64,000 bases of DNA, taken from contig JAFVQC010000048.1 in assembly GCA_017504995.1 (NCBI GenBank), forward strand, positions 58,946 to 122,945, in the 5' to 3' direction. The notes below the pieces were generated by a model that was given only the letters and a program-made list of their open reading frames with translations, ran no database searches and was not told the DNA's origin. This document shows, in pieces, positions 8,891 to 48,848 of the stretch. The DNA is from Clostridia bacterium (GTDB taxonomy: Bacteria > Bacillota > Clostridia > Oscillospirales > CAG-272). Both the position numbers and the translations under genes were made by a program. The stretch's first letter is position 1. Each line of letters starts with the position of its first letter.

Positions 8891-9520
8891 ATGAAAAAGG
8901 GCATTATCGGAAAGAAAATCGGTATGACGCAGATTTTCGACGAAATCGGAAACGTAATTCCGGTTACGGTAATCCAGGCAGGTCCCTGCGTGGTCGCGCA
9001 GAAAAAGACCGTTGAAGCTGACGGCTACAACGCAGTTCAGCTCGGCTTCTCCGACGTAAAAGAGAAGCACATGACCAAGGCCGAGAAGGGTCATTTCGAA
9101 AAGGCGGGCGTTGCTTTCAAGAAGCACCTCAAGGAATTCCGTCTTGACGACATTTCCGCAATCAACGTTGGCGACGTCATTACAGCCGATACCTTCGCCG
9201 CAGGCGACAAGGTCGACGTAACAGGTATGACGAAGGGTCACGGTTATTCGGGTGTTATCAAGAGATGGAATCACCACCACCTCCGTATGACGCACGGTAC
9301 GGGTCCTATTCACCGTCAGCCCGGCTCGATGGGTGTCATCGACCCCGCCAGAATCTTCAAGAACAAGAAGATGGCAGGTCAGTACGGTAACGAGCAGGTT
9401 ACGGTTCTCAATCTTAAGGTTGTGAAAATCGACGCGGAAAAGAATCTGATCGCCATCAAGGGCGCCGTTCCCGGCGCAAAGGACGGCATCGTGTTCATTC
9501 GCGATTCGGTCAAAGCATAA
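8891..9520 (+). CDS. rplC: 50S ribosomal protein L3
   Basis: [17 protein letters not shown]-terminus. Start set at the internal Met preceded by AGGAGG, not the track start at 8795. Confidence 0.96.
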
Positions 9521-34767: not shown

Positions 34768-35766
34768 ATGGCACATTTTGAAGGTTATGAGAGACGCGAG
34801 GCGAAGATCCTTGCTGTCCTGAAGGAATACGGCATCTCCTCCATCGACGAGTGCAAGGAGATCTGCACCGCAAAGGGAATCGACCCCTACAAGATCGTAG
34901 AGGAGACCCAGCCCATCGCGTTTGAGAACGCAAAGTGGGCGTACACCGTCGGCGCGGCGATCGCAATCAAGAAGGGTTGCGTGAAGGCTGCTGACGCCGC
35001 AGCCGCAATCGGTATCGGTCTGCAGGCGTTCTGTATCCCCGGATCGGTTGCAGAAAACCGTAAGGTTGGTCTGGGCCACGGAAATCTGGGCGCAATGCTG
35101 CTGTCCGAGGAGACCGAGTGCTTCTGTTTCCTGGCAGGTCACGAGTCCTTCGCGGCTGCCGAGGGCGCAATCAAGATCGCGCTCAACGCAAACAAGGTGC
35201 GTGTAAAGCCCCTGCGCGTGATTTTGAACGGTCTTGGTAAAGACGCCGCTATGATCATTTCCAGAATCAACGGCTTTACCTACGTGCAGACCGAGTTTGA
35301 TCCCTATACCGAGGAGGTTAAGGTGATCAAGGAGACCGCGTACTCCAACGGTGACAGAGCAAAGGTCAAGTGCTACGGCTCCGATAGCGTGCCCGAGGGC
35401 GTTGCGATCATGAGACTGGAAAACGTTGGCGTATCCATCACGGGTAACTCCACCAACCCCACCCGCTTCCAGCACCCCGTTGCAGGCACCTACAAGAAGT
35501 GGGCAATCGAGAACGGCAAGAGCTACTTCTCCGTAGCGTCGGGCGGCGGTACGGGACGTACCCTGCACCCCGATAACATGGCGGCAGGCCCTGCTTCCTA
35601 CGGTATGACCGATACCCTCGGAAGAATGCACGGCGACGCGCAGTTCGCGGGATCTTCCTCCGTTCCAGCTCACGTAGAGATGATGGGACTTATCGGCGCA
35701 GGTAACAACCCCATGGTGGGAATGACGGTAGCAGTAGCCGTAGCGATTGAGGAAGCAAGCAAATAA
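34768..35766 (+). CDS. GGGtGRT family protein (uncharacterised)
   Basis: 332 aa containing the eponymous ASGGGTGRTL motif. Its last 30 codons are duplicated at 48605-48697. Confidence 0.75.
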   Translation: MAHFEGYERREAKILAVLKEYGISSIDECKEICTAKGIDPYKIVEETQPIAFENAKWAYTVGAAIAIKKGCVKAADAAAAIGIGLQAFCIPGSVAENRKVGLGHGNLGAMLLSEETECFCFLAGHESFAAAEGAIKIALNANKVRVKPLRVILNGLGKDAAMIISRINGFTYVQTEFDPYTEEVKVIKETAYSNGDRAKVKCYGSDSVPEGVAIMRLENVGVSITGNSTNPTRFQHPVAGTYKKWAIENGKSYFSVASGGGTGRTLHPDNMAAGPASYGMTDTLGRMHGDAQFAGSSSVPAHVEMMGLIGAGNNPMVGMTVAVAVAIEEASK

Positions 35767-35902
35767 TCCTTGCGGCGTAAGGCTTTTTGAGACTTTCTTG
35801 ATTTCAAGGAATCATTGAAAAAGATCTTTAGCTGAAAATCACAAATAAAAAGTTGGACACATCATTTACGTGTTTTTGCACGATGATGTGTCCAATATTT
35901 TA
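35673..35902 (+). repeat. left direct repeat (attL region) of the island
   Basis: Aligns to 48604-48848. It covers 30 codons plus the stop, the block TTGCGGCGTAAGGCTTTTTGA and a GGACACATC-stem terminator. The middle part is divergent. Confidence 0.85.
35853..35902 (+). terminator. terminator downstream of the GGGtGRT gene (island-side copy)
   Basis: TTGGACACATCAT (35853-35865) / ATGATGTGTCCAA (35883-35895) followed by TATTTTA. Confidence 0.7.
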
Positions 35903-35976: not shown

Positions 35977-37653
35977 TTATTTTTTCCATATTTGTAAAGC
36001 ATAGGAAGCAAACTCTTGTTGACGCGTTTCAATTTCCACTGCAGTCCAAGCAAGACAATTCGCTAAAGAAGGATTCGGCTCAATTTTAGATTCCTCATAT
36101 CGTTCTTTTTTGCTTTCAAACATTCTATTGGAGATTTCTCTATTAAAAGCTCCACTTAAAAGTGCTAGGTTCCCCAATCTCCAAAGATATGTTTCGTGAA
36201 CATCATCATCCACCTGCCAAATCGAATTGTCCTCCGGCATAATATGTTCAATGTGTACTTCAGTATTATCAATATTTATTTCATTGGAGGAGTCTAAAAA
36301 TTTATGAACCTTTCGAAGAATATACCGAATAGGCTCCTTTGCCGTTTTTGATCCACTCCAAATCTTGAACATATCATAAAATTCTTGATCTCCAACCATT
36401 TCATGCTTAATGCGCGCAATAATTAATTCTTTAGTACTTAATACTCCGTCATAAATTTCTTTAGCGATCGTTGCAAAAATTACTTCTGCCTTGTTTGCAA
36501 CTTTACCGCAAATGGTAAAGTTACGGAACACATAGACCTCAATCGTTTGAATAACTTCACGGATTTCTTGTTCATTAAATTCAGATGGCGCTTGTTTAAT
36601 TGCAAGAACTACGGGATAAAAAGTACTTGCTTTAAGCATTTTCAATGCCTTTAAGCTGTTAATTAATTGTATGTCGCTAAAACCAACATTATCGTCAGGA
36701 GCAGAAATATCATGATAGCACTGCGCGCACGAAGCTAGGTTCCTAAGGAACTCCTTGCTTGCTCTAGGGCTAGAAATAATTTTGCTAATACTTTTATACA
36801 AACTTTTTTCTCGAGTAAATGCTTGTGTCGCATTCCAATAATGACGAATGTACTTCGTGGGGTCTGCCTGATCTAATGTATTAATCATTGAATTCCAAAG
36901 ATTTTGTGCCGAAATAATATCCTGCGTTTGACTAAACACAAAATTTTTCAACAAATCAGCAGTTTCCAAATCTTTGCCTCGCGCGTTAAGCGTTTCAAAA
37001 ATAACAAACGCCTCCTCTAATTTTGTGGCCTCCATATACAGAACGCTAAATCGTTTAGTAAATGTATCATAATATTCATCTAAAACGTCCAGTTTGTCCT
37101 CCACATCTATAGGTTGATCCATCTTCTCTTTAATACGCTCATAGAAATACACATATGCTTTTCGAAGTCTTTCGTGCGATTTTTTTCTAACCCGCACCGT
37201 ATCTTCAGGAGATCCCAATTGAATCTTCTCACGGAAATACTCATTGTCCAATTCACCAAGATGCAAATGCAACTCGTCATTTGAGTCTGACAGGTATCGC
37301 CCGATGTGAATACTGGAAATATCTGATTTTCTATAGTCCGCTCTTTGTCTTCCCGTATCTCTATAAATCAAGTCGTAAAAGTATTGTAATGTACGCATAA
37401 ATATCATGGAGGTAATAGTTCTTTGCTGACCGTCAATGATATATTTCTTCCGGTTTGTTTCATCGTTATGAACCACAATTTGCCCAAAAAAGTGCTCCGA
37501 ATTTTCGCCACTTATTCTGGTCGCATTAAGGTCATCCCAAAAATCTTCAAGTTCAGCCACTTCCCATGAATATTCGCGTTGGTAATTTGGAATATAGTAG
37601 ATTTTACTCAAAAAAGTATTCATTGGTTCGATTGAGCAATTTTGTAATGCCAT
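35977..37653 (-). CDS. GmrSD-type DUF262/DUF1524 nuclease (putative type IV modification-dependent restriction enzyme)
   Basis: 558 aa. N-terminal IPNYQREYSW and IIDGQQRTITS (DUF262/ParB-like). C-terminal HIEHIMPED..LGNLALLSGAFNREISN (DUF1524 His-Me finger). Confidence 0.85.
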   Translation of the reverse strand: MALQNCSIEPMNTFLSKIYYIPNYQREYSWEVAELEDFWDDLNATRISGENSEHFFGQIVVHNDETNRKKYIIDGQQRTITSMIFMRTLQYFYDLIYRDTGRQRADYRKSDISSIHIGRYLSDSNDELHLHLGELDNEYFREKIQLGSPEDTVRVRKKSHERLRKAYVYFYERIKEKMDQPIDVEDKLDVLDEYYDTFTKRFSVLYMEATKLEEAFVIFETLNARGKDLETADLLKNFVFSQTQDIISAQNLWNSMINTLDQADPTKYIRHYWNATQAFTREKSLYKSISKIISSPRASKEFLRNLASCAQCYHDISAPDDNVGFSDIQLINSLKALKMLKASTFYPVVLAIKQAPSEFNEQEIREVIQTIEVYVFRNFTICGKVANKAEVIFATIAKEIYDGVLSTKELIIARIKHEMVGDQEFYDMFKIWSGSKTAKEPIRYILRKVHKFLDSSNEINIDNTEVHIEHIMPEDNSIWQVDDDVHETYLWRLGNLALLSGAFNREISNRMFESKKERYEESKIEPNPSLANCLAWTAVEIETRQQEFASYALQIWKK

Positions 37654-37873
37654 AGTATTACCTCTTTTCGCAAAGATTACAGTTTAATTGTACCATAATT
37701 CTCATAAAAAAGCAAGACCATTCCAAAACATATATATTTAGAACTTATTAATAATCACCCATTTTACAACCTCTTTGCAAACAATCCCCCTTCCCCTATT
37801 CGCAAATGCATTAAAATACGTTATAATGCTCTTGGCAAAACGATGTATCTGATACCCTTGGGAGGATTTTACC

Positions 37874-38812
37874 ATGAAAAAGCTGAAGATGACCACTCAA
37901 AAACTAACCTTTTCAGAGGGCTGTGAGAAGTATCTGGAACACTGTCGGCAGAGGAATTTGAGGCAAGGAACGATCAATCACTATAAGCAGAGTTACACGC
38001 AGTTCTTTAAATACTTCGATCCTCAAATGCCTATTGAGGACATCGACGAGCAGAGCTATAAGGACTACGTTCTGCACCTCAAGGCGACGCTCAACAATGA
38101 CACAAGTATTAATTCATATCTTCGGGATCTCATAACGACTATTCATTTTTTCATGAACGAAGGCTGGCTTCCCTACTTCAAGATGCAGGCGATCAAGGTT
38201 GATAAAAGCCATATCGAGACCTATAACGAGAATGAACTACAACTGCTTTTGAAGAAACCAAACATCAAAAAATGCTCCTTTACCGAATACCAATGTTGGG
38301 TGATGACGAACTTCTTTTTCAGCACAGGAGTAAGGCAGCGGAGTTTGATGCACATTCAGATCAAGAACATCGATTTTGATAACAACGTCGTCTACGTCAA
38401 CGTGACAAAGAATAGAAAGCCTTTGATCGTTCCTCTCAATCGAACGATGTCTGGTATCCTCTCCGAGTACTTGAAATACAGACAACATAAATCAAATGAC
38501 GACTTTCTCTTCTGCAACGTCTTCGGTCAACAGCTCACGAAAAGCACCTGCTATCATATGCTCTATGAGTACAACAAGCGTCGAGGCGTACAGACCACAG
38601 GCATCCACCGCTACCGCCATACCTTCGCAAAGCAATGGATCCTCAACGGCGGCAACGTCGTCTCCCTCTCAAAGCTTCTCGGACATAGCAGTTTGGAAAT
38701 CACACAGAACTATATCCACCTTCTCACCAGCGATATAGCTGAACAAGTTGACGAATTCAACGTACTGGATAAGTTTTATGGGAAGAAGCGCATTTTCATG
38801 ATTAAAGAATAG
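37874..38812 (+). CDS. tyrosine-type site-specific recombinase/integrase
   Basis: 312 aa. ..STGVRQRSL.. (Arg I), HRYRHTFA (His-x-x-Arg), LGHSS, and the catalytic Tyr in ITQNYIHL. Confidence 0.9.
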   Translation: MKKLKMTTQKLTFSEGCEKYLEHCRQRNLRQGTINHYKQSYTQFFKYFDPQMPIEDIDEQSYKDYVLHLKATLNNDTSINSYLRDLITTIHFFMNEGWLPYFKMQAIKVDKSHIETYNENELQLLLKKPNIKKCSFTEYQCWVMTNFFFSTGVRQRSLMHIQIKNIDFDNNVVYVNVTKNRKPLIVPLNRTMSGILSEYLKYRQHKSNDDFLFCNVFGQQLTKSTCYHMLYEYNKRRGVQTTGIHRYRHTFAKQWILNGGNVVSLSKLLGHSSLEITQNYIHLLTSDIAEQVDEFNVLDKFYGKKRIFMIKE

Positions 38813-38838
38813 CCATTACCTAAATAATGCAAAAAAAC

Positions 38839-38867
38839 TTGAAATATTCATAATTATGTGATATAAT
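38839..38867 (+). promoter_or_regulatory. near-consensus sigma-A promoter driving the structured RNA/leader
   Basis: TTGAAA (38839-38844), 17-nt spacer, TGaTATAAT (38859-38867). Confidence 0.75.
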
Positions 38868-38873
38868 AAAAGA

Positions 38874-39078
38874 GCCAAACTAATCGAATACTTTTTAGAG
38901 CGTATTTTTACTTTAGGGTGACTATACTCTTTTTGTCGTACACATTTTTATAGTAGAATTTGATAAAAACGCAAATTCCGGCTATGAAGATGTGTTAATA
39001 CGCTCTTACAGTAGATTAGTTTGGCGACTATCGGAGTTTGCGTTTTTTAGGCGTTGACTTCGGTTGGCGCCTTTTTTA
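38874..39078 (+). ncRNA. candidate structured RNA or attenuating 5' leader of the 39122-42133 operon (class unknown)
   Basis: 12-bp perfect helix 38874-38885/39014-39025. Coaxial 10-bp helix 38897-38906/38997-39006. A 15-17-bp helix 38965-38981/39031-39047 ends in a U tract. A second terminator hairpin at 39050-39071 is followed by TTTTTTATTTT. Confidence 0.55.
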
Positions 39079-39121
39079 TTTTAATAGTCTCGAAACTTAA
39101 CACACGAAGGAGAACCGCGCG

Positions 39122-40843
39122 ATGAACATTATGTTTATTCTTATCCCATGTATAGCTTGTTTGATTATCGCCATTGTTGGTGTCTTCATAGCAAAAAAGC
39201 AAAATACCAAGTCAAATGAGAAATATGTTGCTTCAGAGAATGCTACTTTCACACATATTGTCACCGCCACCAGCCAAAAGCCCTCCCCCACTGCTTTTGT
39301 GATATGGCTGATAGCCACCATTGTGCTTTTGGGCGGTGCAATAACGCTCGGAATTTTCACATTACTTTGGGGAGACGATTATCAATATTACAAAGAAGAG
39401 TGCGAAGAAATAAAATCAAAAATGAGTTTGGAACAGCCTTTTGATGAGTTTGAAGAGTTTATTGCCGCATGCAAAAGCGAAGAGGTTGAAGATGGTGTCG
39501 ATTTAGCCCCTTATTGGAACAACTATGTATATGCTATGGAGCAGCGTGGATTCGATTACTTACGGTCATCCAATTGGGCTATGGAATCAAGTTCATATTA
39601 TCTGGATTGGTATGACGTGCAAGATATTGCAAAAAGCACAGGATTCATGAAGGATAAGTATGATGAATACGGAGGTTTAGTGTCTGCCAATGCAACAGAC
39701 GCTGCGTACGCAAACGCATTCGAAAACGAGCTTTTGAAGAAGCTCAACAACGTCATCCATCAAAATTTAACAAAGGAGTTAGCAGCAAAAGAGGAATACA
39801 CAGGAGAGGTTCTTCTTATTACCATCGTTGCTTTCTTTATTCCATGCGTTATCTGTCTTGCGCTTGGCATTGTTGGTATCTTTGTAACGATAAAGCAACG
39901 CAAAAAGCTGAAGGAATGGCGCGTGGCTTACGAATCTGCTATACAGGAGCGTGCTACTGCCGAGAATTTGGAAAAGCAACAATATCTTTTGAAGCTGGAA
40001 GAAATGCAGAGAAGAATTGACACTTTGGAGGGAAAAGCTCCGACGGAAGTTACTTCTCAAAGTACAATGCAAGCATCACCAAAACGAGCGGAAGATTTCC
40101 TGCGTACAACCTCGTCATCTCAACAAGATACAAGCGCGCCCACGAGTTCAAATGGCCCGAAACCTATTGAGCAATCGTCGGCGTTTACGCCACATATAGA
40201 TGTGAAAAAAAGAACTTTGCTTCAAACTCTAAGCGACATAGAAAAAGATAAAGAAGGAATTGTTAAATTTCTTTTAGCTGTGGCTTTCTTCCCTTTGAAA
40301 ACGATTCTACGAACCATAGCACTTCCTAATACATGCTCCACACTTGTTAAGGCGGATACAATGGCAAAGGAAATTGCTGCAAAAGGAAACGCATACTTAG
40401 CCGAGGGCTATGAAAACGTGAGACGCCGCGAAGCGAGGGAAGCTTACGAAAAAGCAAATACGACTCAAGAAAAGATGGAGTTTTTCTATTGTTATTTTTC
40501 TTCTGTTGAGAATTGCAAAAAGCCGACGTTGTGCGCATACATTATGACGTATATTGCCGAAAACAGTAGTCTTTTTGATAAAAACGATCCGTTACACTTA
40601 GCTTCCTATTTTGCAGATGATGTTGATAACGCCTTGTACTCATTGCTTGGATTTGATCCGCAGGAAACAACAAATGGTCGACATTACGAACATTTGCTGA
40701 GAGTAAATGACGGAGAGCGGGGCTCTGATAAGTATATTTTACAGTGTCTGATAATCGCGGCAAATGGTAGCGAAGGTGACTCGGTTCCACTCTACAAATA
40801 TGATATTCTTGGGCAAGAGTGCATGTCCGAGGATGCAGAATAA
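39122..40843 (+). CDS. hypothetical membrane protein (3 TM, coiled coil, Ser/Thr/Gln-rich linker); no domain recognised
   Basis: 573 aa. GAAGGAG RBS. TM1 and TM3 are an internal duplication: IPCIACLIIAIVGVFIAKKQ versus IPCVICLALGIVGIFVTIKQ. Confidence 0.75.
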   Translation: MNIMFILIPCIACLIIAIVGVFIAKKQNTKSNEKYVASENATFTHIVTATSQKPSPTAFVIWLIATIVLLGGAITLGIFTLLWGDDYQYYKEECEEIKSKMSLEQPFDEFEEFIAACKSEEVEDGVDLAPYWNNYVYAMEQRGFDYLRSSNWAMESSSYYLDWYDVQDIAKSTGFMKDKYDEYGGLVSANATDAAYANAFENELLKKLNNVIHQNLTKELAAKEEYTGEVLLITIVAFFIPCVICLALGIVGIFVTIKQRKKLKEWRVAYESAIQERATAENLEKQQYLLKLEEMQRRIDTLEGKAPTEVTSQSTMQASPKRAEDFLRTTSSSQQDTSAPTSSNGPKPIEQSSAFTPHIDVKKRTLLQTLSDIEKDKEGIVKFLLAVAFFPLKTILRTIALPNTCSTLVKADTMAKEIAAKGNAYLAEGYENVRRREAREAYEKANTTQEKMEFFYCYFSSVENCKKPTLCAYIMTYIAENSSLFDKNDPLHLASYFADDVDNALYSLLGFDPQETTNGRHYEHLLRVNDGERGSDKYILQCLIIAANGSEGDSVPLYKYDILGQECMSEDAE

Positions 40844-40861
40844 GAATGGAGGGATAATGAT

Positions 40862-42133
40862 ATGACAACAGAAATAAATACAATGATTCAAGAATTGGAT
40901 CGCATTGATGCTCTTTGCCATAAAAAAGATGAGTTGCAAATTGCTTTGGGGCTGGCAGATGGCGAAAAAGACAACAGAGACATAAAAGCCTTAAATAACA
41001 AAAACAAAAAAGCAAGAGCCTTTCAAACGCAGAGAAGCGCTAAACTTCCGCAACTGAATCACGGGATAAATCTTGAAGGCGACAATGCTCCGACTGCTGT
41101 TAAACCGTGGAGGGAGCCTCTCGTGCTTTTTGACAAGAAAGCAAACGCATGGATACCAAAAAAGCACTACAGCAACGACTTGATTCGTGATTTTGTCGTT
41201 TCGTGGTTATTTGTAGCATTCCTTATCGGTTTAATTGTTAGCGCGGTATTATTGGCAACCACAAGCGCCTACTCAGCATATATTATGTTTTGCATTTTCG
41301 GTTTCGGTTTTATAGCTTCCGGTATAGCATGCTTGTTGTTATACAGTTCCATAGAATTCAATGATGAGTGGGTTGAAGGCATAAAACGCAGGCATGTAGG
41401 CAAAGAGCAGTATGACGAAAAGGTGAAGGAATGGGAAGACGCGACCAAAAACTATATTTCTGAATTCTGCAAGAATGATCACGCCAATGTTATAGATACT
41501 CTTATTGCATCGGTAGAAAAATATGACAAGGATTTTCTTGGTATGGTAGCTGATTGTGAGACTACTTTAGAGGCGCTCGACGATGAATATCGTCACCAGC
41601 TTCAAGAAAGCTACTATACGTACGAGGCAGACATAGCTGCAATTAAAGCCGATATCGCGGAAAACGAAAAAGAACTAAGCGCTATCACTTTAATTCATCC
41701 CGACCTGTTCAGAAAGGCTGCAAAAATATCTGCTGTTCTTAAAATGTATCGTGCAGAGTCGTTGCCTGGGGCTATCAATATAGTTTTCGATGATGAACGT
41801 CGTGAAGCCGAGGAAGCAGAACGGAGAGCAGAAGCAGAAAGACGCGAGCGACTCTTGGAGCAACAGATTAGGGAAAACAGGTTTGCGGCAGAAGAAGCAG
41901 CACGTGAAATGCGTCAACACAACGAAGCGATGGAAAAGCAAGCGCAGGAAGCACAAAGAAAAGCGGATCTTCAAAGAGAAAGAGATAATCAAGCCGCAGA
42001 AAATCTGCTGAAGCAGAGAAAAAAGGCTGCCAGCGACAGATGCTATCATTGTGCAAATTCCTCCTGCTCCTTAAGAGTGAGATCGAGCTTCTATAACACC
42101 GGTGATGTTTGTCCTAATTACAGACCAAAGTAA
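40862..42133 (+). CDS. hypothetical membrane protein (2 TM, long Glu/Arg coiled coil, C-terminal Cys cluster); no domain recognised
   Basis: 423 aa. GGAGGG RBS 18 nt after the upstream stop. C-terminus CYHCANSSC..x17..CPNY. Confidence 0.75.
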   Translation: MTTEINTMIQELDRIDALCHKKDELQIALGLADGEKDNRDIKALNNKNKKARAFQTQRSAKLPQLNHGINLEGDNAPTAVKPWREPLVLFDKKANAWIPKKHYSNDLIRDFVVSWLFVAFLIGLIVSAVLLATTSAYSAYIMFCIFGFGFIASGIACLLLYSSIEFNDEWVEGIKRRHVGKEQYDEKVKEWEDATKNYISEFCKNDHANVIDTLIASVEKYDKDFLGMVADCETTLEALDDEYRHQLQESYYTYEADIAAIKADIAENEKELSAITLIHPDLFRKAAKISAVLKMYRAESLPGAINIVFDDERREAEEAERRAEAERRERLLEQQIRENRFAAEEAAREMRQHNEAMEKQAQEAQRKADLQRERDNQAAENLLKQRKKAASDRCYHCANSSCSLRVRSSFYNTGDVCPNYRPK

Positions 42134-42231: not shown

Positions 42232-42942
42232 TTAAATTTGTTTGGTATGATCTTTAAGCTCTCTCTTATACTTATAATAACTATTCCTCGAACACCCACA
42301 AAGTTTGATAACATCGGGATCTTCAAGGCTACCACCGAAGTCTTTGGCGTGTTTCAATATGATAGCCTTACACTCAATAGACTTCTTGGTGGTAAGGGGT
42401 GAGCCTTTGGTAAGACCTATCTGTGTCCCATTCTTTTTAGCTTCACGGATTCCTTGACTGATTCTTGAATGAAGGTCGGTGACTTCTTTTTCGGCTTGGT
42501 CAAAAGCGGCTTTGATCTGTTCCTCTGCCAAAGCTAATATGAAATCATTAATCAATTGGATATTGCCCTTAAAGAAAGCGTCAACTGCTTGATTTCCAGT
42601 GTCGATGCTGACGTTCAGCAGTTTGCTTTTGGTGGCATCGAGAACAGATGTATTTATAAGTGGCTCGTTAAGAAAGACGAGGTTAATGCCACGCTCATAG
42701 AGCATTTTATAATCTTTATAGCCCTCTGCGCTATTACGCGCCATTCGGGAGACACTGTCGAAAACGATGGTGTCTTCCTTTTTTACTTGGGGTATGAATT
42801 TCTCCCAATGTGGACGGTTCTGTGTAGTACCTGTGTAAAATTCTTTGATGATAATTGCATTCGGGTAGATAGCGGTGATATTGGTGATCTGTCGGGCGAT
42901 TTTCTGATGTTGGGTGCTAACGCGGCAATAAGCATAGATCAT
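42232..42942 (-). CDS. small serine recombinase (resolvase/invertase family)
   Basis: MIYAYCRVSTQHQ (nucleophile Ser), ..VFDSVSRMARN.., C-terminal HTH region. Confidence 0.9.
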   Translation of the reverse strand: MIYAYCRVSTQHQKIARQITNITAIYPNAIIIKEFYTGTTQNRPHWEKFIPQVKKEDTIVFDSVSRMARNSAEGYKDYKMLYERGINLVFLNEPLINTSVLDATKSKLLNVSIDTGNQAVDAFFKGNIQLINDFILALAEEQIKAAFDQAEKEVTDLHSRISQGIREAKKNGTQIGLTKGSPLTTKKSIECKAIILKHAKDFGGSLEDPDVIKLCGCSRNSYYKYKRELKDHTKQI

Positions 42943-43110
42943 AATGTGTACTTCCTTTCAGCATTGAAACAAACTAAAGTTTCTTTTGATGCTATCATTA
43001 TGCCGTGTATTTGCTAATTGGGCACGAACTTTCGGTATAACTTTTGCGAACTTTGTTTTGGTGCTGATGTTAAAAAATATAGCCATGGCGATATGCTATA
43101 GCTATATACA

Positions 43111-43126: not shown

Positions 43127-43198
43127 AAGCTTTTTATTTCATTCAATTAATTTAGCGCTTTGTTTTGTAATATTATATGGACAAGTATAAAAACTAGT

Positions 43199-43227
43199 GC
43201 TATAATTATATAGGTAACAGTTGCAAA
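43199..43227 (+). promoter_or_regulatory. TATAAT box plus iteron-like motif ATAGGTAACAGTTGCAAA, copy 1
   Basis: TATAAT at 43199-43204. The 18-nt motif at 43210-43227 is identical to 44643-44660. It lies 25 nt upstream of the Rep-like start. Confidence 0.6.
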
Positions 43228-43251
43228 TCAAGACAGATGCGAGGGGCTATT

Positions 43252-44604
43252 ATGATATCGGTAGTGGAAATTGCGAGTAGATTGGTAGATAGAAAAGAAT
43301 ATGAGTTTAGTGTTAATAAGGTGGGCTGGGAACCTAAACGAGCTGAATCTTATACGCTACCGGCATTTCATATAACTGAGAGCAAAGCCAAAGGAGCAGA
43401 GGCAAAGCTTAGAACAAAGTTAAGTAAGGTCTTGGCGTTTATTGATACGGTGAAGCATAAGCGTTTTAAAGGCGGCTGTACCATTATGCCTATTAGTGTA
43501 ACGAACAAGGATAACTTGGCAATCTGGGGCGACAAGATGGGCGTTTCAAGAGCGATTGCTTATATGATAGAAATTGGACTGATAAGTGTCGAGAGTGATA
43601 AATATCAGTTTGGAGCTTATTATGATAAAGATAATAAGAGCAAGTCGTATTACTATTATAAAGAGAACGAGGACAAGGTCAAGGCATATTGTGAAGCGCA
43701 TGGCATTACTATGCACGTGGTTCAGAATAAGGTATATGACATGGCTGAGGTTAAAAGCGTTCCTCTGGCAATGGATAAGTCTATGGTGCGTTTTGCAACG
43801 GGACTTAAGCTGATAAGACCTGAGGACCTGAGCAAGGCGGAGTTTGAGAAGCAATTGACTTTGTGCTTATATGAGAACTACCCGGGCTTGCGGTTTCATA
43901 TCATAAAGGCGAACGAGATCAACGAGAGATATTATAAGGACTATCCGGAATTTCGGATTCGTTTTCAGCCGAATTTTACTTGGTCAGACGATGATCTGTA
44001 TGTAAGTAGGATCGGTATCAGAGCAACGAATTCCATGATCAATGTTAAGAAAGAGGTACGTAAAGAAATATTAAATGTGTATGGCTTGAACTTGGAGCAT
44101 GATATTAATGCTTCAGTGCCGCGTATGACGGCATCTTTGAACGCGGGGCGTTGGATTGATGAGGCGGAAGATATGTACGAGCTCATATTTCGTGTTATGG
44201 AGCCGAATGGCGACTTCAACCATGAAGTGCGTGAAGCAATCAAAAAGCTTCATATGCGAGCTTATTTTGACTCTGGGGACAAGCTTACAGGGCATCATAC
44301 TTGGTTGTCGATGGATCAGAGTGGCATTGATAGAGAGGACGTTTGCGATACTATGAAAGCTTTTCGTGAAGCAATTATAGAAGCTGAGGGCGGTAAGCTT
44401 TATGGGAGTGATATCTTTTACATTGAGTCATGTGTATATCTGATGACGTTATATGATCTGGTTACATCGGGGCATAAGGTGTGGCAGGTTTATGATTGCT
44501 TTTATGCGACGGGGGAAGAAGATCAAGAGTTGTTTGATTTTATGATTTCAAATGGAGTAAAGAGAAATTTTGAAGATTTCTTGTCGGTTTGGTGGAAAGT
44601 ATAG
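43252..44604 (+). CDS. hypothetical protein with an N-terminal HTH-like segment; possible replication initiator
   Basis: 450 aa from the Met at 43252 (GAGGGG RBS). ..MGVSRAIAYMIEIGLI.. is HTH-like. Flanked by repeated motifs and an AT-rich stretch. The functional call rests on context only. Confidence 0.4.
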   Translation: MISVVEIASRLVDRKEYEFSVNKVGWEPKRAESYTLPAFHITESKAKGAEAKLRTKLSKVLAFIDTVKHKRFKGGCTIMPISVTNKDNLAIWGDKMGVSRAIAYMIEIGLISVESDKYQFGAYYDKDNKSKSYYYYKENEDKVKAYCEAHGITMHVVQNKVYDMAEVKSVPLAMDKSMVRFATGLKLIRPEDLSKAEFEKQLTLCLYENYPGLRFHIIKANEINERYYKDYPEFRIRFQPNFTWSDDDLYVSRIGIRATNSMINVKKEVRKEILNVYGLNLEHDINASVPRMTASLNAGRWIDEAEDMYELIFRVMEPNGDFNHEVREAIKKLHMRAYFDSGDKLTGHHTWLSMDQSGIDREDVCDTMKAFREAIIEAEGGKLYGSDIFYIESCVYLMTLYDLVTSGHKVWQVYDCFYATGEEDQELFDFMISNGVKRNFEDFLSVWWKV

Positions 44605-44633
44605 AGATAAAAAATATAAATAATAAATATAAT

Positions 44634-44745
44634 ATATATACAATAGGTAACAGTTGCAAAAAGTGTGGCGGAAAAGATAAAAAAAGATATTTATAGTGAG
44701 AGAGATAGAAATTATATAATATATACAATAGGTAACAGTTGTAAA
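44634..44745 (+). repeat. two further iteron-like copies (23 nt identical, 85-bp period) in a very AT-rich stretch
   Basis: ATATATACAATAGGTAACAGTTG occurs at 44634-44656 and 44719-44741. Each copy is preceded by a TATAAT-like box. Confidence 0.8.
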
Positions 44746-44780
44746 AAAACAGATAATTCGGGGTGAATTATCTGTTTTTG
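44743..44780. terminator. bidirectional terminator
   Basis: ACAGATAATTC (44749-44759) / GAATTATCTGT (44765-44775), flanked by AAAAAAA and TTTT. Confidence 0.75.
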
Positions 44781-44793
44781 ACTTTATATGGGA

Positions 44794-45123
44794 TTATTTA
44801 TTGGAATAAATAATATTTATGATTTGTTTAAGTGAGTAGTCGTTTTTGATAAGGTCTATGGAATGAATAACATGAGGATATTTGGAAGGATGGGTATATG
44901 AGGTGGTAAGTATTTTAATGAGAGATTTATACGTGTTGATATTATATTTAGAGGATGTGGTGAAGTAGAAATTTAAGAATTTTTGGTAAGTATCTTCAGA
45001 CATGAAGAAATTACAATGGATATTGAGTTGTTGGTAGACGAAGAAGAGGAGATCGAGTTGATTGATAGTTAGGGTATCGATTTGAGTTTGAATGAACGTG
45101 GACGAATAAATTTTACTTTTCAT
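44794..45123 (-). CDS. hypothetical small protein (109 aa), paralog of 45289-45666
   Basis: AT-rich codon usage. It has its own promoter and terminator. Shares DL(L/F)xF(V/F)Y..LN.H.N......FL.. and ..(I/V)IN..Y with its neighbour. Confidence 0.6.
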   Translation of the reverse strand: MKSKIYSSTFIQTQIDTLTINQLDLLFFVYQQLNIHCNFFMSEDTYQKFLNFYFTTSSKYNINTYKSLIKILTTSYTHPSKYPHVIHSIDLIKNDYSLKQIINIIYSNK

Positions 45124-45156
45124 AATATAAAATTCCTTTCATTTAAAATATTTTAT

Positions 45157-45184
45157 ATTATAAAATACAGTTTTATTTTGTAAA
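45157..45184 (-). promoter_or_regulatory. putative promoter of the 109-aa ORF
   Basis: On the minus strand: TTTACA (45184-45179), 16-nt spacer, TATAAT (45162-45157). Confidence 0.5.
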
Positions 45185-45210
45185 ATCTAATCGTTTTACG
45201 AAAAAAGGTC

Positions 45211-45250
45211 GAAAATTGAAAAAGCTGATGATCCATACCGGACCATCAGC
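45211..45250 (-). terminator. intrinsic terminator of the 125-aa ORF
   Basis: Minus strand GCTGATGGTCC..GGATCATCAGC (one mismatch) followed by TTTTTCAATTTTC. Confidence 0.7.
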
Positions 45251-45288
45251 CTTTGTTATTGATATTTTGTGCTATCAATATATCTTAA

Positions 45289-45666
45289 TCAGAATACGTC
45301 GTAGCCGAAAGCGTCTACGTTAGCGTAGTAGTTGTTGATTACTTCATCAATCGTAAATTTCTTTTTGAGCAGTAGCGTTGCAGTCAGCAGACTCATATGG
45401 TCAAAGCAATATTTTGTCAGATTTTCAATCAGTTCCTTTCTAAATGCTTTGTCCTCATGATGCCTGAATGGGTTGCTGTTAAAAGCCTCAAGGAACTCAT
45501 TGAACTTGTCATTGTAGATCATATTTCCGTGCTGGCAGTTCAGCTTATAGAAAAAGATAAATAAGTCGTGTAGCCCGGAGTCACTCATGGTTTCCAGTTC
45601 TTTAATCAATGTTTCTGTTGTTTTGTTAATAGGGGTATTTGTATTTTCAATATTTGCCATAATCAT
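45289..45666 (-). CDS. hypothetical small protein (125 aa), paralog of 44794-45123
   Basis: ORF in the track; no domain recognised. See the paralogy evidence above. Confidence 0.6.
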   Translation of the reverse strand: MIMANIENTNTPINKTTETLIKELETMSDSGLHDLFIFFYKLNCQHGNMIYNDKFNEFLEAFNSNPFRHHEDKAFRKELIENLTKYCFDHMSLLTATLLLKKKFTIDEVINNYYANVDAFGYDVF

Positions 45667-45867: not shown

Positions 45868-45896
45868 TTAAGCTAATATATTTACATATAAATATA

Positions 45897-45928
45897 AATA
45901 GCTAGGTGCGAAAACACCTAGCTATTTA
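45897..45928 (-). terminator. hairpin terminator after the SIR2-NTPase gene
   Basis: AAATAGCTAGGTG / CACCTAGCTATTT 13-bp stem, 15 nt past the stop codon. Confidence 0.65.
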
Positions 45929-45942
45929 TAAACATATTTTTA

Positions 45943-48210: not shown

Positions 48211-48604
48211 GCCCTCCGATTGAAAGATTATAATTAATTATAATTAAAATATTATAATTAAAATGTTGTAATATAATTATACCATTTTTTTCGACATTAT
48301 TCAACTGTTTTTTGCTTTTATTTCTATTGTTTGAGTGTTTTGAAACATTCCGCAGTTTATTTAAAGTACGTTATTGCCCCTACAATCTACGTTATTAACT
48401 GATTGGTTAGCAAAAAAGTCGCAAATAAACTTCCTCCAAAGCCGTGTACGAAAGCCTAAAAACACGATATAATGCATTCAGCAAAACTTAATATGATGTG
48501 TTCGACGTAATGGATTTTGCAATGCAATTATATCAAAAGGCTTATATTTCAAGGCTTTGGGCGGCAGCTATTCACCCCGAAGCTATAGTTAAAGCTCCTG
48601 AAGC

Positions 48605-48697
48605 GTAGAGATGATGGGACTCATCGGCGCAGGTAACAACCCCATGGTCGGTATGACTGTAGCGGTTGCGGTTGCGATCGAAGAGGCAAGCAAATAA
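48605..48697 (+). pseudogene. orphan 3' fragment (30 codons plus stop) of the GGGtGRT gene
   Basis: Encodes VEMMGLIGAGNNPMVGMTVAVAVAIEEASK, identical to the end of 34768-35766. An in-frame TGA lies at 48599-48601. Confidence 0.85.
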
Positions 48698-48728
48698 GTC
48701 TTGCGGCGTAAGGCTTTTTGAACGATTC

Positions 48729-48776
48729 GTAGGGGCGAACTGCGTTCGCCCGCGGGCGTTCACAGAACGCCCCTAC
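48729..48776. repeat. GTAGGG-family palindromic element
   Basis: GTAGGGGCG..CGCCCCTAC outer stem enclosing two inner hairpins (GCGAACTGCGTTCGC; GGGCGTTCACAGAACGCCC). Confidence 0.8.
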
Positions 48777-48798
48777 AAACAAAATAAATAAAAAAGTT

Positions 48799-48848
48799 GG
48801 ACACATCATTTTCGCGTTTTGCGAGAGGATGTGTCCGATATTTTTATG
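48799..48848 (+). terminator. terminator (host-side copy) after the orphan gene fragment
   Basis: GGACACATC (48799-48807) / GATGTGTCC (48828-48836) followed by GATATTTTTAT. Confidence 0.65.

Follow-up and report, generated by a model that had tools for sequence, protein, structure and literature searches.

Analysis of a 64,000-nucleotide stretch of the Clostridia bacterium assembly GCA_017504995.1 (Oscillospirales, CAG-272; contig JAFVQC010000048.1, positions 58,946 to 122,945; hereafter the window, meaning this stretch at its full length) revealed that two adjacent genes of an integrative genomic island, A and B, encode membrane proteins of families described in no curated library and belong to an ancient, obligate two-gene module (X-B, where X denotes the C-terminal domain of A and its free-standing counterparts). 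The A-B cassette sits between a conserved edge formed by a tyrosine integrase gene (Int), a promoter and a leader RNA, and the convergent gene of a serine recombinase (Res). The leader, in turn, belongs to a widespread uncatalogued RNA family, in which a three-way junction and an invariant 3' tail are preceded by a promoter specific to the RNA and followed by a terminator. As for function, we tentatively place first an envelope-level conflict module acting in phage exclusion or abortive infection, because of the mobility, rarity and partner modularity of the pair, its co-cargo and its fast-evolving exposed parts. The two genes are:

39122-40843, plus strand: gene A, an open reading frame of 573 amino acids (aa), characterized by hydropathy
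40862-42133, plus strand: gene B, an open reading frame of 423 aa

The coordinates and lengths of both reading frames, the 18-nt gap between them and their strong ribosome-binding sites (RBSs; AAGGAG 9 nt before the ATG of A and GGAGGG 8 nt before the ATG of B) agree with a preliminary description of this DNA. The same holds for the three transmembrane (TM) helices assigned to A, two of them duplicates: hydropathy places hydrophobic segments at residues ~4-26, ~60-83 and ~230-256, and direct sequence reading shows IPCIACLIIAIVGVFIAKKQ (residues 8-27) and IPCVICLALGIVGIFVTIKQ (240-259) to be identical at 13 of 20 positions. From its N-terminus, A comprises TM1, TM2, an acidic and aromatic ectodomain of ~140 aa (84-225), TM3, a coiled coil (~250-300), a linker rich in S, T, P and Q (~300-375) and the X domain (~385-573). 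The coiled coil, linker and C-terminal domain were thus described correctly at the outset, but the cysteines then pointed out in that domain are not conserved. TM1, the duplicate of TM3, is lineage-specific, and all other A homologues begin just before TM2. The X domain is homologous to a free-standing protein (BLASTP 2.5e-5, with an alignment consistent throughout), and a search with the X profile recovered 31 clusters at E-values from 7e-81 to 6e-13. Judged by these sequence comparisons, A consists of X with a membrane module (TM, 140-aa ectodomain, TM, coiled coil) fused to its N-terminus. In a further protein, P0005 (586 aa, JGI), the same N-terminal membrane/ectodomain/coiled-coil module is joined to a different C-terminal region, with CxxC zinc-ribbon motifs and additional hydrophobic segments; this sensor-like part of A is therefore itself shuffled between proteins.

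Gene B consists of an N-terminal helix, a TM hairpin (~106-164), a helical domain bearing the TxIHxDxF...GRADxLKEAIN signature, a heptad stalk of ~100 residues within an E/A/R-rich helix (301-399, 99 residues) and a C-terminal Cys4 knuckle (C394-x2-C397-x4-C402-x14-C417). The TM hairpin, long Glu/Arg/Ala coiled coil and C-terminal Cys cluster recognized previously are supported by hydropathy and by an AlphaFold2 (AF2) model, which is all-helical with a predicted local distance difference test (pLDDT) score of 69; C394, C397, C402 and C417 are invariant in 54 diverse homologues. For A, only the C-terminal fragment was modelled by AF2, and its X domain is likewise all-helical (pLDDT 66). An exhaustive HMMER search of 1.84 billion representatives delineated a B family of 231 clusters at E<=1e-3 (146 at E<=1e-10), nearly all 310-435 aa long, with a TM-like segment in 117 of 126 representatives of >=300 aa. 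Its signature includes an N-terminal ExIxELxxIxxL helix, TxIHxDxF...GRADxLKEAIN, HNxxMER heptad repeats and an invariant RCxxCANxxxCS...CxxYRP.

The previously noted absence of recognizable domains was upheld by library, profile and Foldseek searches. Nothing meaningful was found for A or B in Pfam, PADLOC, PHROGs or NCBIfam, and the 54 diverse B homologues gave 0 matches to Pfam. PDB sequence and profile searches with either protein returned only chance or TM-region matches, and Foldseek comparison of the AF2 models with PDB and BFVD yielded no match at E<1e-3, a weak negative given the moderately confident models. The single borderline case is DUF4064 on A (whole-protein score 33.2 vs. a cut-off of 32.1), in which no single stretch passes and only TM helices are covered; on this alignment it is read as TM-helix similarity.

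Close relatives are rare: 5.8 billion proteins contain five close homologues of A and six of B, always together. In a scan of one genome per species, 12 distant B homologues (25-33% identity) were found, all in metagenome-assembled genomes of gut or rumen Clostridia. Each distant B is preceded by a translationally coupled, soluble X protein of 200-255 aa with an acidic tail, and HMM (hidden Markov model) searches of the fetched loci placed X directly upstream of B in every locus where upstream DNA is present, across ~20 lineages. The two domains are also found fused in opposite orders, as X-linker-B in P0176 (651 aa) and as the N-terminal half of B followed by X in P0175 (526 aa). Because adjacency and order are conserved across divergent lineages and two independent fusions exist, we consider X-B an obligate module; the co-occurrence of the pair was in this way checked well beyond the window.

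Several partners accompany X-B optionally: a 162-aa P-loop NTPase (located before X or after B), a protein of 138-168 aa that starts with MGFMDKLK or MGFFDKIK, and a divergently oriented Xre helix-turn-helix (HTH) gene. The NTPase, exemplified by L023:8982-9470, L018:3099-3590 and L031:1913-2401, has a Walker A motif GxxxxGK[ST]T and only weak nSTAND/MobB matches; it is absent from the window. Pairs often adjoin integrases or TnpV. At one such locus, a perfect 25-nt inverted repeat (L023:8674-8698 and 8929-8953) flanks 230 nt between a gene for a 281-aa tyrosine recombinase and an NTPase-X-B operon. This arrangement is shaped like an invertible switch, with one orientation in all assembled copies.

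One rival explanation is addiction. An obligate, translationally coupled pair with the partner gene first, the acidic tail on free-standing X, the divergent Xre HTH in several lineages and mini-elements of the type Int-NTPase-X-B-162aa-TnpV that carry little else would speak for a stabilization module, in which B is a membrane toxin, acidic X neutralizes it, and the island or mini-element is thereby maintained. We nevertheless regard this explanation as quite improbable, since both proteins are far above the typical size of toxin-antitoxin components, no known toxin fold is present, a single-polypeptide X/B fusion fits a toxin and its antitoxin poorly, and the ectodomain on the window X would be needless for a simple antitoxin. 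Membership among type II toxin-antitoxin systems, considered separately, was rejected given proteins of 573 and 423 aa and no toxin or antitoxin domain in Pfam or NCBIfam.

A conflict role at the envelope draws on the predicted topology and on the uneven rates of divergence. Basic residues follow TM1 (KKQ) and TM3 (KQRKKLK) of A, and a basic stretch precedes the B hairpin. From the positive-inside rule we infer that the A ectodomain (84-225) and the B hairpin loop lie outside and that the A coiled coil, linker, X and both termini of B are cytoplasmic. The cassette comprises two inner-membrane proteins, one with X tethered by a sensor-like module bearing the 140-aa ectodomain and the other with a cytoplasmic helical domain. 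Comparison of the window with L001, another island at the same site, gave nonsynonymous divergences (dN) of 0.28 for A (0.54 for its ectodomain) and 0.18 for B (0.65 for its TM hairpin and <=0.018 for residues 301-423) vs. 0.057 for Int, 0.005 for Res and 0.011 for the backbone gene p455. The outward-facing parts of A and B diverge 5-10 times faster than the neighboring genes, a pattern of fast divergence together with mosaic recombination.

Location of the pair between an integrase and a serine recombinase, with a GmrSD gene and a SIR2-NTPase gene on either side, was correctly reported in the preliminary description, as Pfam and PADLOC matches confirm. The elements that define the cargo slot are as follows:

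37874-38812, plus strand: tyrosine integrase gene (Int), part of the backbone; Pfam Phage_integrase at 8e-31 plus SAM-like domains
38839-38867, plus strand: sigma-70-type promoter of the leader RNA and cargo; TTGAAA-17-TATAAT, 11 of 12 matches, with a TG extension
38874-39085, plus strand: structured leader RNA; stem P1 (38874-38885 with 39014-39025), apical box (38956-38978) and tail (39026-39048), both conserved, terminator (39049-39072) and U-run
42232-42942, minus strand: small serine recombinase gene of the resolvase type (Res, 236 aa; Pfam Resolvase at 7e-19), convergent with B and forming the right backbone edge of the slot

Metagenome comparisons, which rest on assembled contigs throughout, showed that this slot is exchanged. 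The loci L165-L168 share with the window the integration site, Int, promoter and leader (nhmmer 7e-40), the promoter being identical in the window and L165, and have A-B replaced by a gene for a 1728-aa protein with Flg_new/Glug repeats (L165:10253-15439), followed by Res, p450, p109 and p126. DNA homology between L165 and the window covers 37861-39078 and returns from 42260, and in L001 and L004 homology to the window is lost at 39081, where the leader terminator ends. From this replacement and these breakpoints it follows that A-B is swappable cargo in a defined slot. Res follows the cargo in the window, L001, L004, L007 and L165. At 90% identity, the Int and Res clusters hold 124 and 74 members, respectively, and A and B are singletons. 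Cluster names indicate a host among the Oscillospiraceae/Ruminococcaceae. In L004 (4689-4763, window 42942-43016), homology stops 74 nt upstream of the Res start and meets an apparently truncated 421-aa ABC-transporter reading frame; judging from this junction, the segment from Int to Res may move or recombine as a unit at a site before the resolvase gene. Inversion of the cargo by Res in a Hin-like manner was considered and rejected, as no inverted repeats flank the cargo.

The two recombinases that bracket A-B in window-type islands, and the integrases adjoining the pair in at least five lineages, could also speak for a part in the life cycle of the mobile element itself (such as anchoring the excised element to the membrane, or transfer or replication coupling) together with Int, Res and the p455 iteron module described below. 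Sister islands, however, keep Int, Res, p455, p109 and p125 alongside an unrelated surface protein, and the backbone can therefore do without A-B. Recombinases are missing from the vicinity of several X-B pairs, and no ATPase or DNA-binding domain was found in A or B, which leaves such a role highly improbable.

The leader that opens the slot is an RNA of ~210 nt with a minimum free energy of -81.9 kcal/mol (z = -6.7 vs. shuffled controls), ending before A in a terminator with a 10-bp TTCG-loop stem (39049-39072) and a T-run. Metagenome contigs aligned to it reach a 30-115-fold excess of depth over 39005-39051, joined to many different upstream sequences, and an exact 22-mer, TTGGCGACTATCGGAGTTTGCG, is present in no fewer than 120 metagenome contigs from the guts of humans, camels and kangaroos and in four IMG/VR contigs. 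In the family so collected (L033-L156, L157 and L165-L168), 74 of 85 distinct copies have a -10 box 4-9 nt ahead of the 5' end of the RNA (GCCAAAC). The copies have in common a closing stem P1, whose extension varies, inner stems that vary as well, a GGG...CCCUUUU hairpin, an apical hairpin GAAUUUG-AUAAAAAUG-CAAAUUC and the tail GACUAUCGGAGUUUGCGUUUUUU followed by the terminator GUGCGnnnnCUUCGGnnnnCGCAC. An RBS comes next, with the start codon ~10-40 nt past the terminator U-run. Folded individually, 70 of 94 unique copies adopt the same three-way-junction shape. Compensatory changes support P1 and the terminator, with 97.5% of cells paired vs. 28-44% for slid partners and 137 double-change cells vs. 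46 ± 5 in shuffles. The apical box can pair alternatively with the tail over a conserved 15-16 bp, where only one-sided changes occur and the terminator stem is not overlapped; no antiterminator overlapping the terminator was identified. Rfam 15 contains no family reaching its gathering threshold (best tsr26, 26.1 bits vs. 141), and full-text literature searches did not find the RNA sequence or related descriptions.

In three of four gut metagenomes there are contigs in which 38883 is followed directly by 39014, the 130 nt between them being absent. Their depth is 6-7 vs. 39-82 for the full form (~7-17% of local depth); this could be a true deletion variant or polymerase or assembly skipping across the hairpin. 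Several specific roles for the leader were examined and rejected. A tie to Int or A-B is contradicted by the 124 other copies: 123 of them lack a nearby homologue of Int, and clear homologues of A or B accompany none, although one ~20-bit match to the B profile is located ~2 kb downstream of the leader in L045. A leader peptide is contradicted by direct reading, the only recurrent AUG being ACG in the window copy. An invertible promoter (inverton) is contradicted by four metagenomes without strand-change joints and by the one orientation of all assembled copies.

Genes behind the leader are very diverse and mainly encode exported products; they include genes for lipoproteins, small TM, zinc-ribbon and SPFH/Band-7 proteins, an extracytoplasmic function (ECF) sigma factor and a type IIG-like enzyme. 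Among 93 distinct leader-led genes, 58 have a hydrophobic start and 28 a lipobox-like motif. In L157 the leader also precedes a divergent X-B pair (27% identity) and a Band_7 gene. Because it resides in the conserved Int-side backbone and stands ahead of unrelated genes in at least 120 copies, the leader is a backbone element that serves expression in general, not one that evolved for a toxic A-B. The initial idea of a leader gate thus stands as regards the element, which is real, but fails as regards gating evolved for toxic effectors.

The slot lies in an island of 12.9 kb (~35.9-48.8 kb) with a GC content of 30-42% vs. ~52% in the flanks. The remaining features of the island, from left to right, are:

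35673-35876, no strand: left flanking direct repeat, att-like, comprising the 3' end of the GGGtGRT gene and downstream sequence
35977-37653, minus strand: gene of the GmrSD type (type IV restriction), occupying variable cargo slot 1; Pfam GmrSD_N 4e-35 and GmrSD_C 2e-22, PADLOC HEC-06 2e-151
43237-44604, plus strand: backbone gene p455, in a stretch (43187-44747) with three flanking 43-nt iteron-like repeats
44794-45123 and 45289-45666, minus strand: small backbone genes p109 and p125 (together 44794-45666), conserved in L001, L007 and L165
45943-48210, minus strand: gene of a SIR2 plus STAND-like NTPase in variable cargo slot 4; Pfam SIR2_2 3e-11, weak nSTAND matches (3e-4 and 6e-4)
48604-48820, no strand: right flanking direct repeat, repeat families D1 and D4

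The GGGtGRT gene has its 3' end duplicated in the imperfect flanking repeats (~200 nt) that delimit the island: a 118-nt repeat (35673-35790 and 48604-48721) matches at 89% and a 30-nt repeat (35847-35876 and 48791-48820) at 93%. The same integration site is occupied in L001, L007, L163 and L165, with differently loaded islands in other metagenomes, and Int adjoins the GGGtGRT gene in the loci inspected (L163 and L165, as well as L166-L168 with the L165 gene order). An integrase, flanking repeats, atypical composition and variable occupancy of one site identify the whole as an integrative genomic island, whose backbone consists of Int, the promoter and leader, Res, p455, p109 and p125. The p455 gene, kept at 97% in L001 and 75% in L007, has no match in Pfam, PHROG, NCBIfam, PDB or PADLOC; the 43-nt direct repeats around it (43187-43229, 44620-44662 and 44705-44747; core TAGGTAACAGTTGCAAA), the first of which overlaps the p455 promoter, suggest a possible replication module. 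No family was found for p109 or p125 in Pfam, PADLOC, PHROGs or NCBIfam.

Both outer cargo slots vary. Slot 1 holds GmrSD in the window and a 436-aa gene in L001, with no occupant in L007 and L165. In slot 4, the SIR2-STAND gene of the window gives way to DUF6809 plus a 453-aa gene in L001 and to an AAA_15/OLD-TOPRIM ATPase gene in L007. The SIR2-STAND gene has no PADLOC v2 match despite its SIR2_2 domain, and may itself be an uncatalogued variant of a defence gene. Just 3' of its stop codon lies a perfect AT-rich hairpin (45881-45941), probably a terminator, whose 'mir-374' match (28 bits vs. a gathering threshold of 54) is due to chance.

The association with defence genes, from which a defence role for A-B had first been proposed, must be weighed against a wider context. 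On its positive side, window-type islands do carry defence genes as co-cargo, namely those for GmrSD and SIR2-STAND in the window itself and one for an OLD-type ATPase in L007; against it stand the swappable slot and the surroundings of distant pairs. Among 97 neighbors of 11 such pairs, the top Pfam assignments are integrase (4), glutamine synthetase III (3), SpoIVA (2), TnpV (2) and assorted metabolism, and PADLOC recognizes few, namely one type IIG restriction-modification gene, mad2/3/8, WYL and weak ATPase matches, all as raw counts without a background control. Typical layouts are Int-NTPase-X-B-162aa-TnpV and HTH(-)-X-B inserted between housekeeping genes. The X-B module is mobile and accessory, and a defence-island habitat is at most possible.

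A rival explanation is a role outside defence, in which the pair would be one exchangeable membrane or surface cargo among many, comparable to the Flg_new/Glug protein and to the lipoproteins and small TM proteins behind the same leader, and would be an accessory of the envelope engaged in surface variation, envelope organization or scaffolding, or sporulation-related membrane remodelling. The alternative occupant of its slot is the 1728-aa surface protein, the hydrophobic starts (58 of 93) and lipobox-like motifs (28) of leader-led genes show a bias towards exported proteins, distant pairs lie amid housekeeping and sporulation genes, and no effector domain was found in A or B. Proteins that combine a hairpin with a coiled coil are, moreover, common membrane scaffolds. 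On the other hand, the pair occurs rarely, patchily and in linkage with integrases, its exchangeable partners include an Xre regulator and a small NTPase, and defence cargo is carried on the same island. On balance, we consider a non-defence envelope role rather unlikely, though only slightly less probable than a conflict role.

Returning to the envelope-level conflict module, a series of results weighs against it. In PADLOC-DB v2 (including Zorya, Kiwa and RexAB), A and B match 0 families at E<=0.01, and no nuclease, protease, NADase, known pore domain or fold match was found in either protein. Searches of 50,697 phage and 72,556 plasmid records by tblastn with B and X gave no match; B relatives were likewise not found in IMG/VR. 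The A-B operon was found in no RNA-seq run searched. The dN/dS ratios of A and B (0.3-0.4 vs. 0.05-0.13 for neighbors) come with dS that reaches saturation in the variable parts and differs along the island, so that positive selection is no more than possible. Finally, distant X-B pairs mostly lie beside housekeeping genes (glutamine synthetase III, SpoIVA, PhoU), and the A-B slot holds a surface protein in sister islands. What keeps a conflict role first in our ranking, besides the features named at the outset, is that partner swapping (Xre HTH, the 162-aa NTPase and the 'MGFMDKLK' protein) may be likened to that of many defence systems.

Transcription of the pair is predicted to begin at the island promoter, which requires read-through of the leader terminator. 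If a conflict role is assumed, the fast-evolving outward parts could sense an envelope event, and the TM segments would relay the signal to a cytoplasmic assembly in which X presumably binds the cytoplasmic part of B, a reading supported by the fusions in both orders. The output might be oligomerization of the B hairpin that compromises the membrane or, alternatively, recruitment of a partner through the zinc knuckle.

Overall, both proteins and the leader RNA are uncatalogued yet conserved, and the proteins are obligately paired, mobile and present in abundant uncultured gut Oscillospiraceae/Clostridia. Should defence or exclusion by X-B prove true, it would add a membrane-based mechanism without a known effector domain from a phylum little explored for defence. 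The leader is a candidate for a new class of regulatory RNA over surface and accessory genes, and the fixed slot, with Int and the RNA on one side and Res on the other, offers a natural and comparable series of cargo swaps. A broader scenario, which we consider rather improbable as a whole, would unite these parts: a new, possibly ligand- or protein-responsive class of regulatory RNA in gut Clostridia would run a large, mobile regulon for exported and conflict proteins, cargo swaps beside the integrase would use the invariant 3' end of this RNA as their anchor of homology, and X-B would be a new membrane anti-phage or exclusion system delivered in this way.

A side-by-side comparison with known systems reveals both likenesses and substantial differences. 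The leader resembles terminator-type 5' leaders (riboswitches, T-box) in that a promoter of its own is followed by a conserved RNA of several stems, whose helices covary, and then by an intrinsic terminator and an RBS; it differs from them in lacking an Rfam match and an identified overlapping antiterminator, and in that the downstream genes are mutually unrelated. The slot recalls what is generally known of morons and integron-like cassettes, as unrelated cargo is exchanged at a fixed spot by a recombinase gene, after a resident promoter. Unlike integron cassettes, its left crossover is the 3' end of a conserved RNA element and no known recombination site; no attC array was noted at the slot, although no dedicated attC search was made. 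The ends of P1, GCCAAAC...GTTTGGC, do resemble the consensus RYYYAAC...GTTRRRY at 6 of 7 positions each.

Among membrane-associated systems, Kiwa (KwaA/KwaB) and RexA/RexB are two-gene mobile operons that combine one membrane protein with one cytoplasmic partner and for which membrane activity is postulated. A-B may be compared to them as a two-gene operon on a mobile element, but both of its proteins are membrane-anchored, have no PADLOC or Pfam match and represent undescribed families. The ZorA/ZorB proteins of Zorya form a membrane complex with a very long cytoplasmic coiled-coil tail, reside on defence islands and are proposed to sense envelope events and to signal inward. A and B match no ZorA or ZorB HMM and are accompanied by no MotAB-like stator, peptidoglycan-binding domain or nuclease partner of the ZorC/D type, and B is built instead of a two-TM hairpin and a Cys4 knuckle. 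By analogy, A-B may nevertheless be likened to Zorya as a membrane-embedded pair with a long coiled coil, located on an island together with defence genes.

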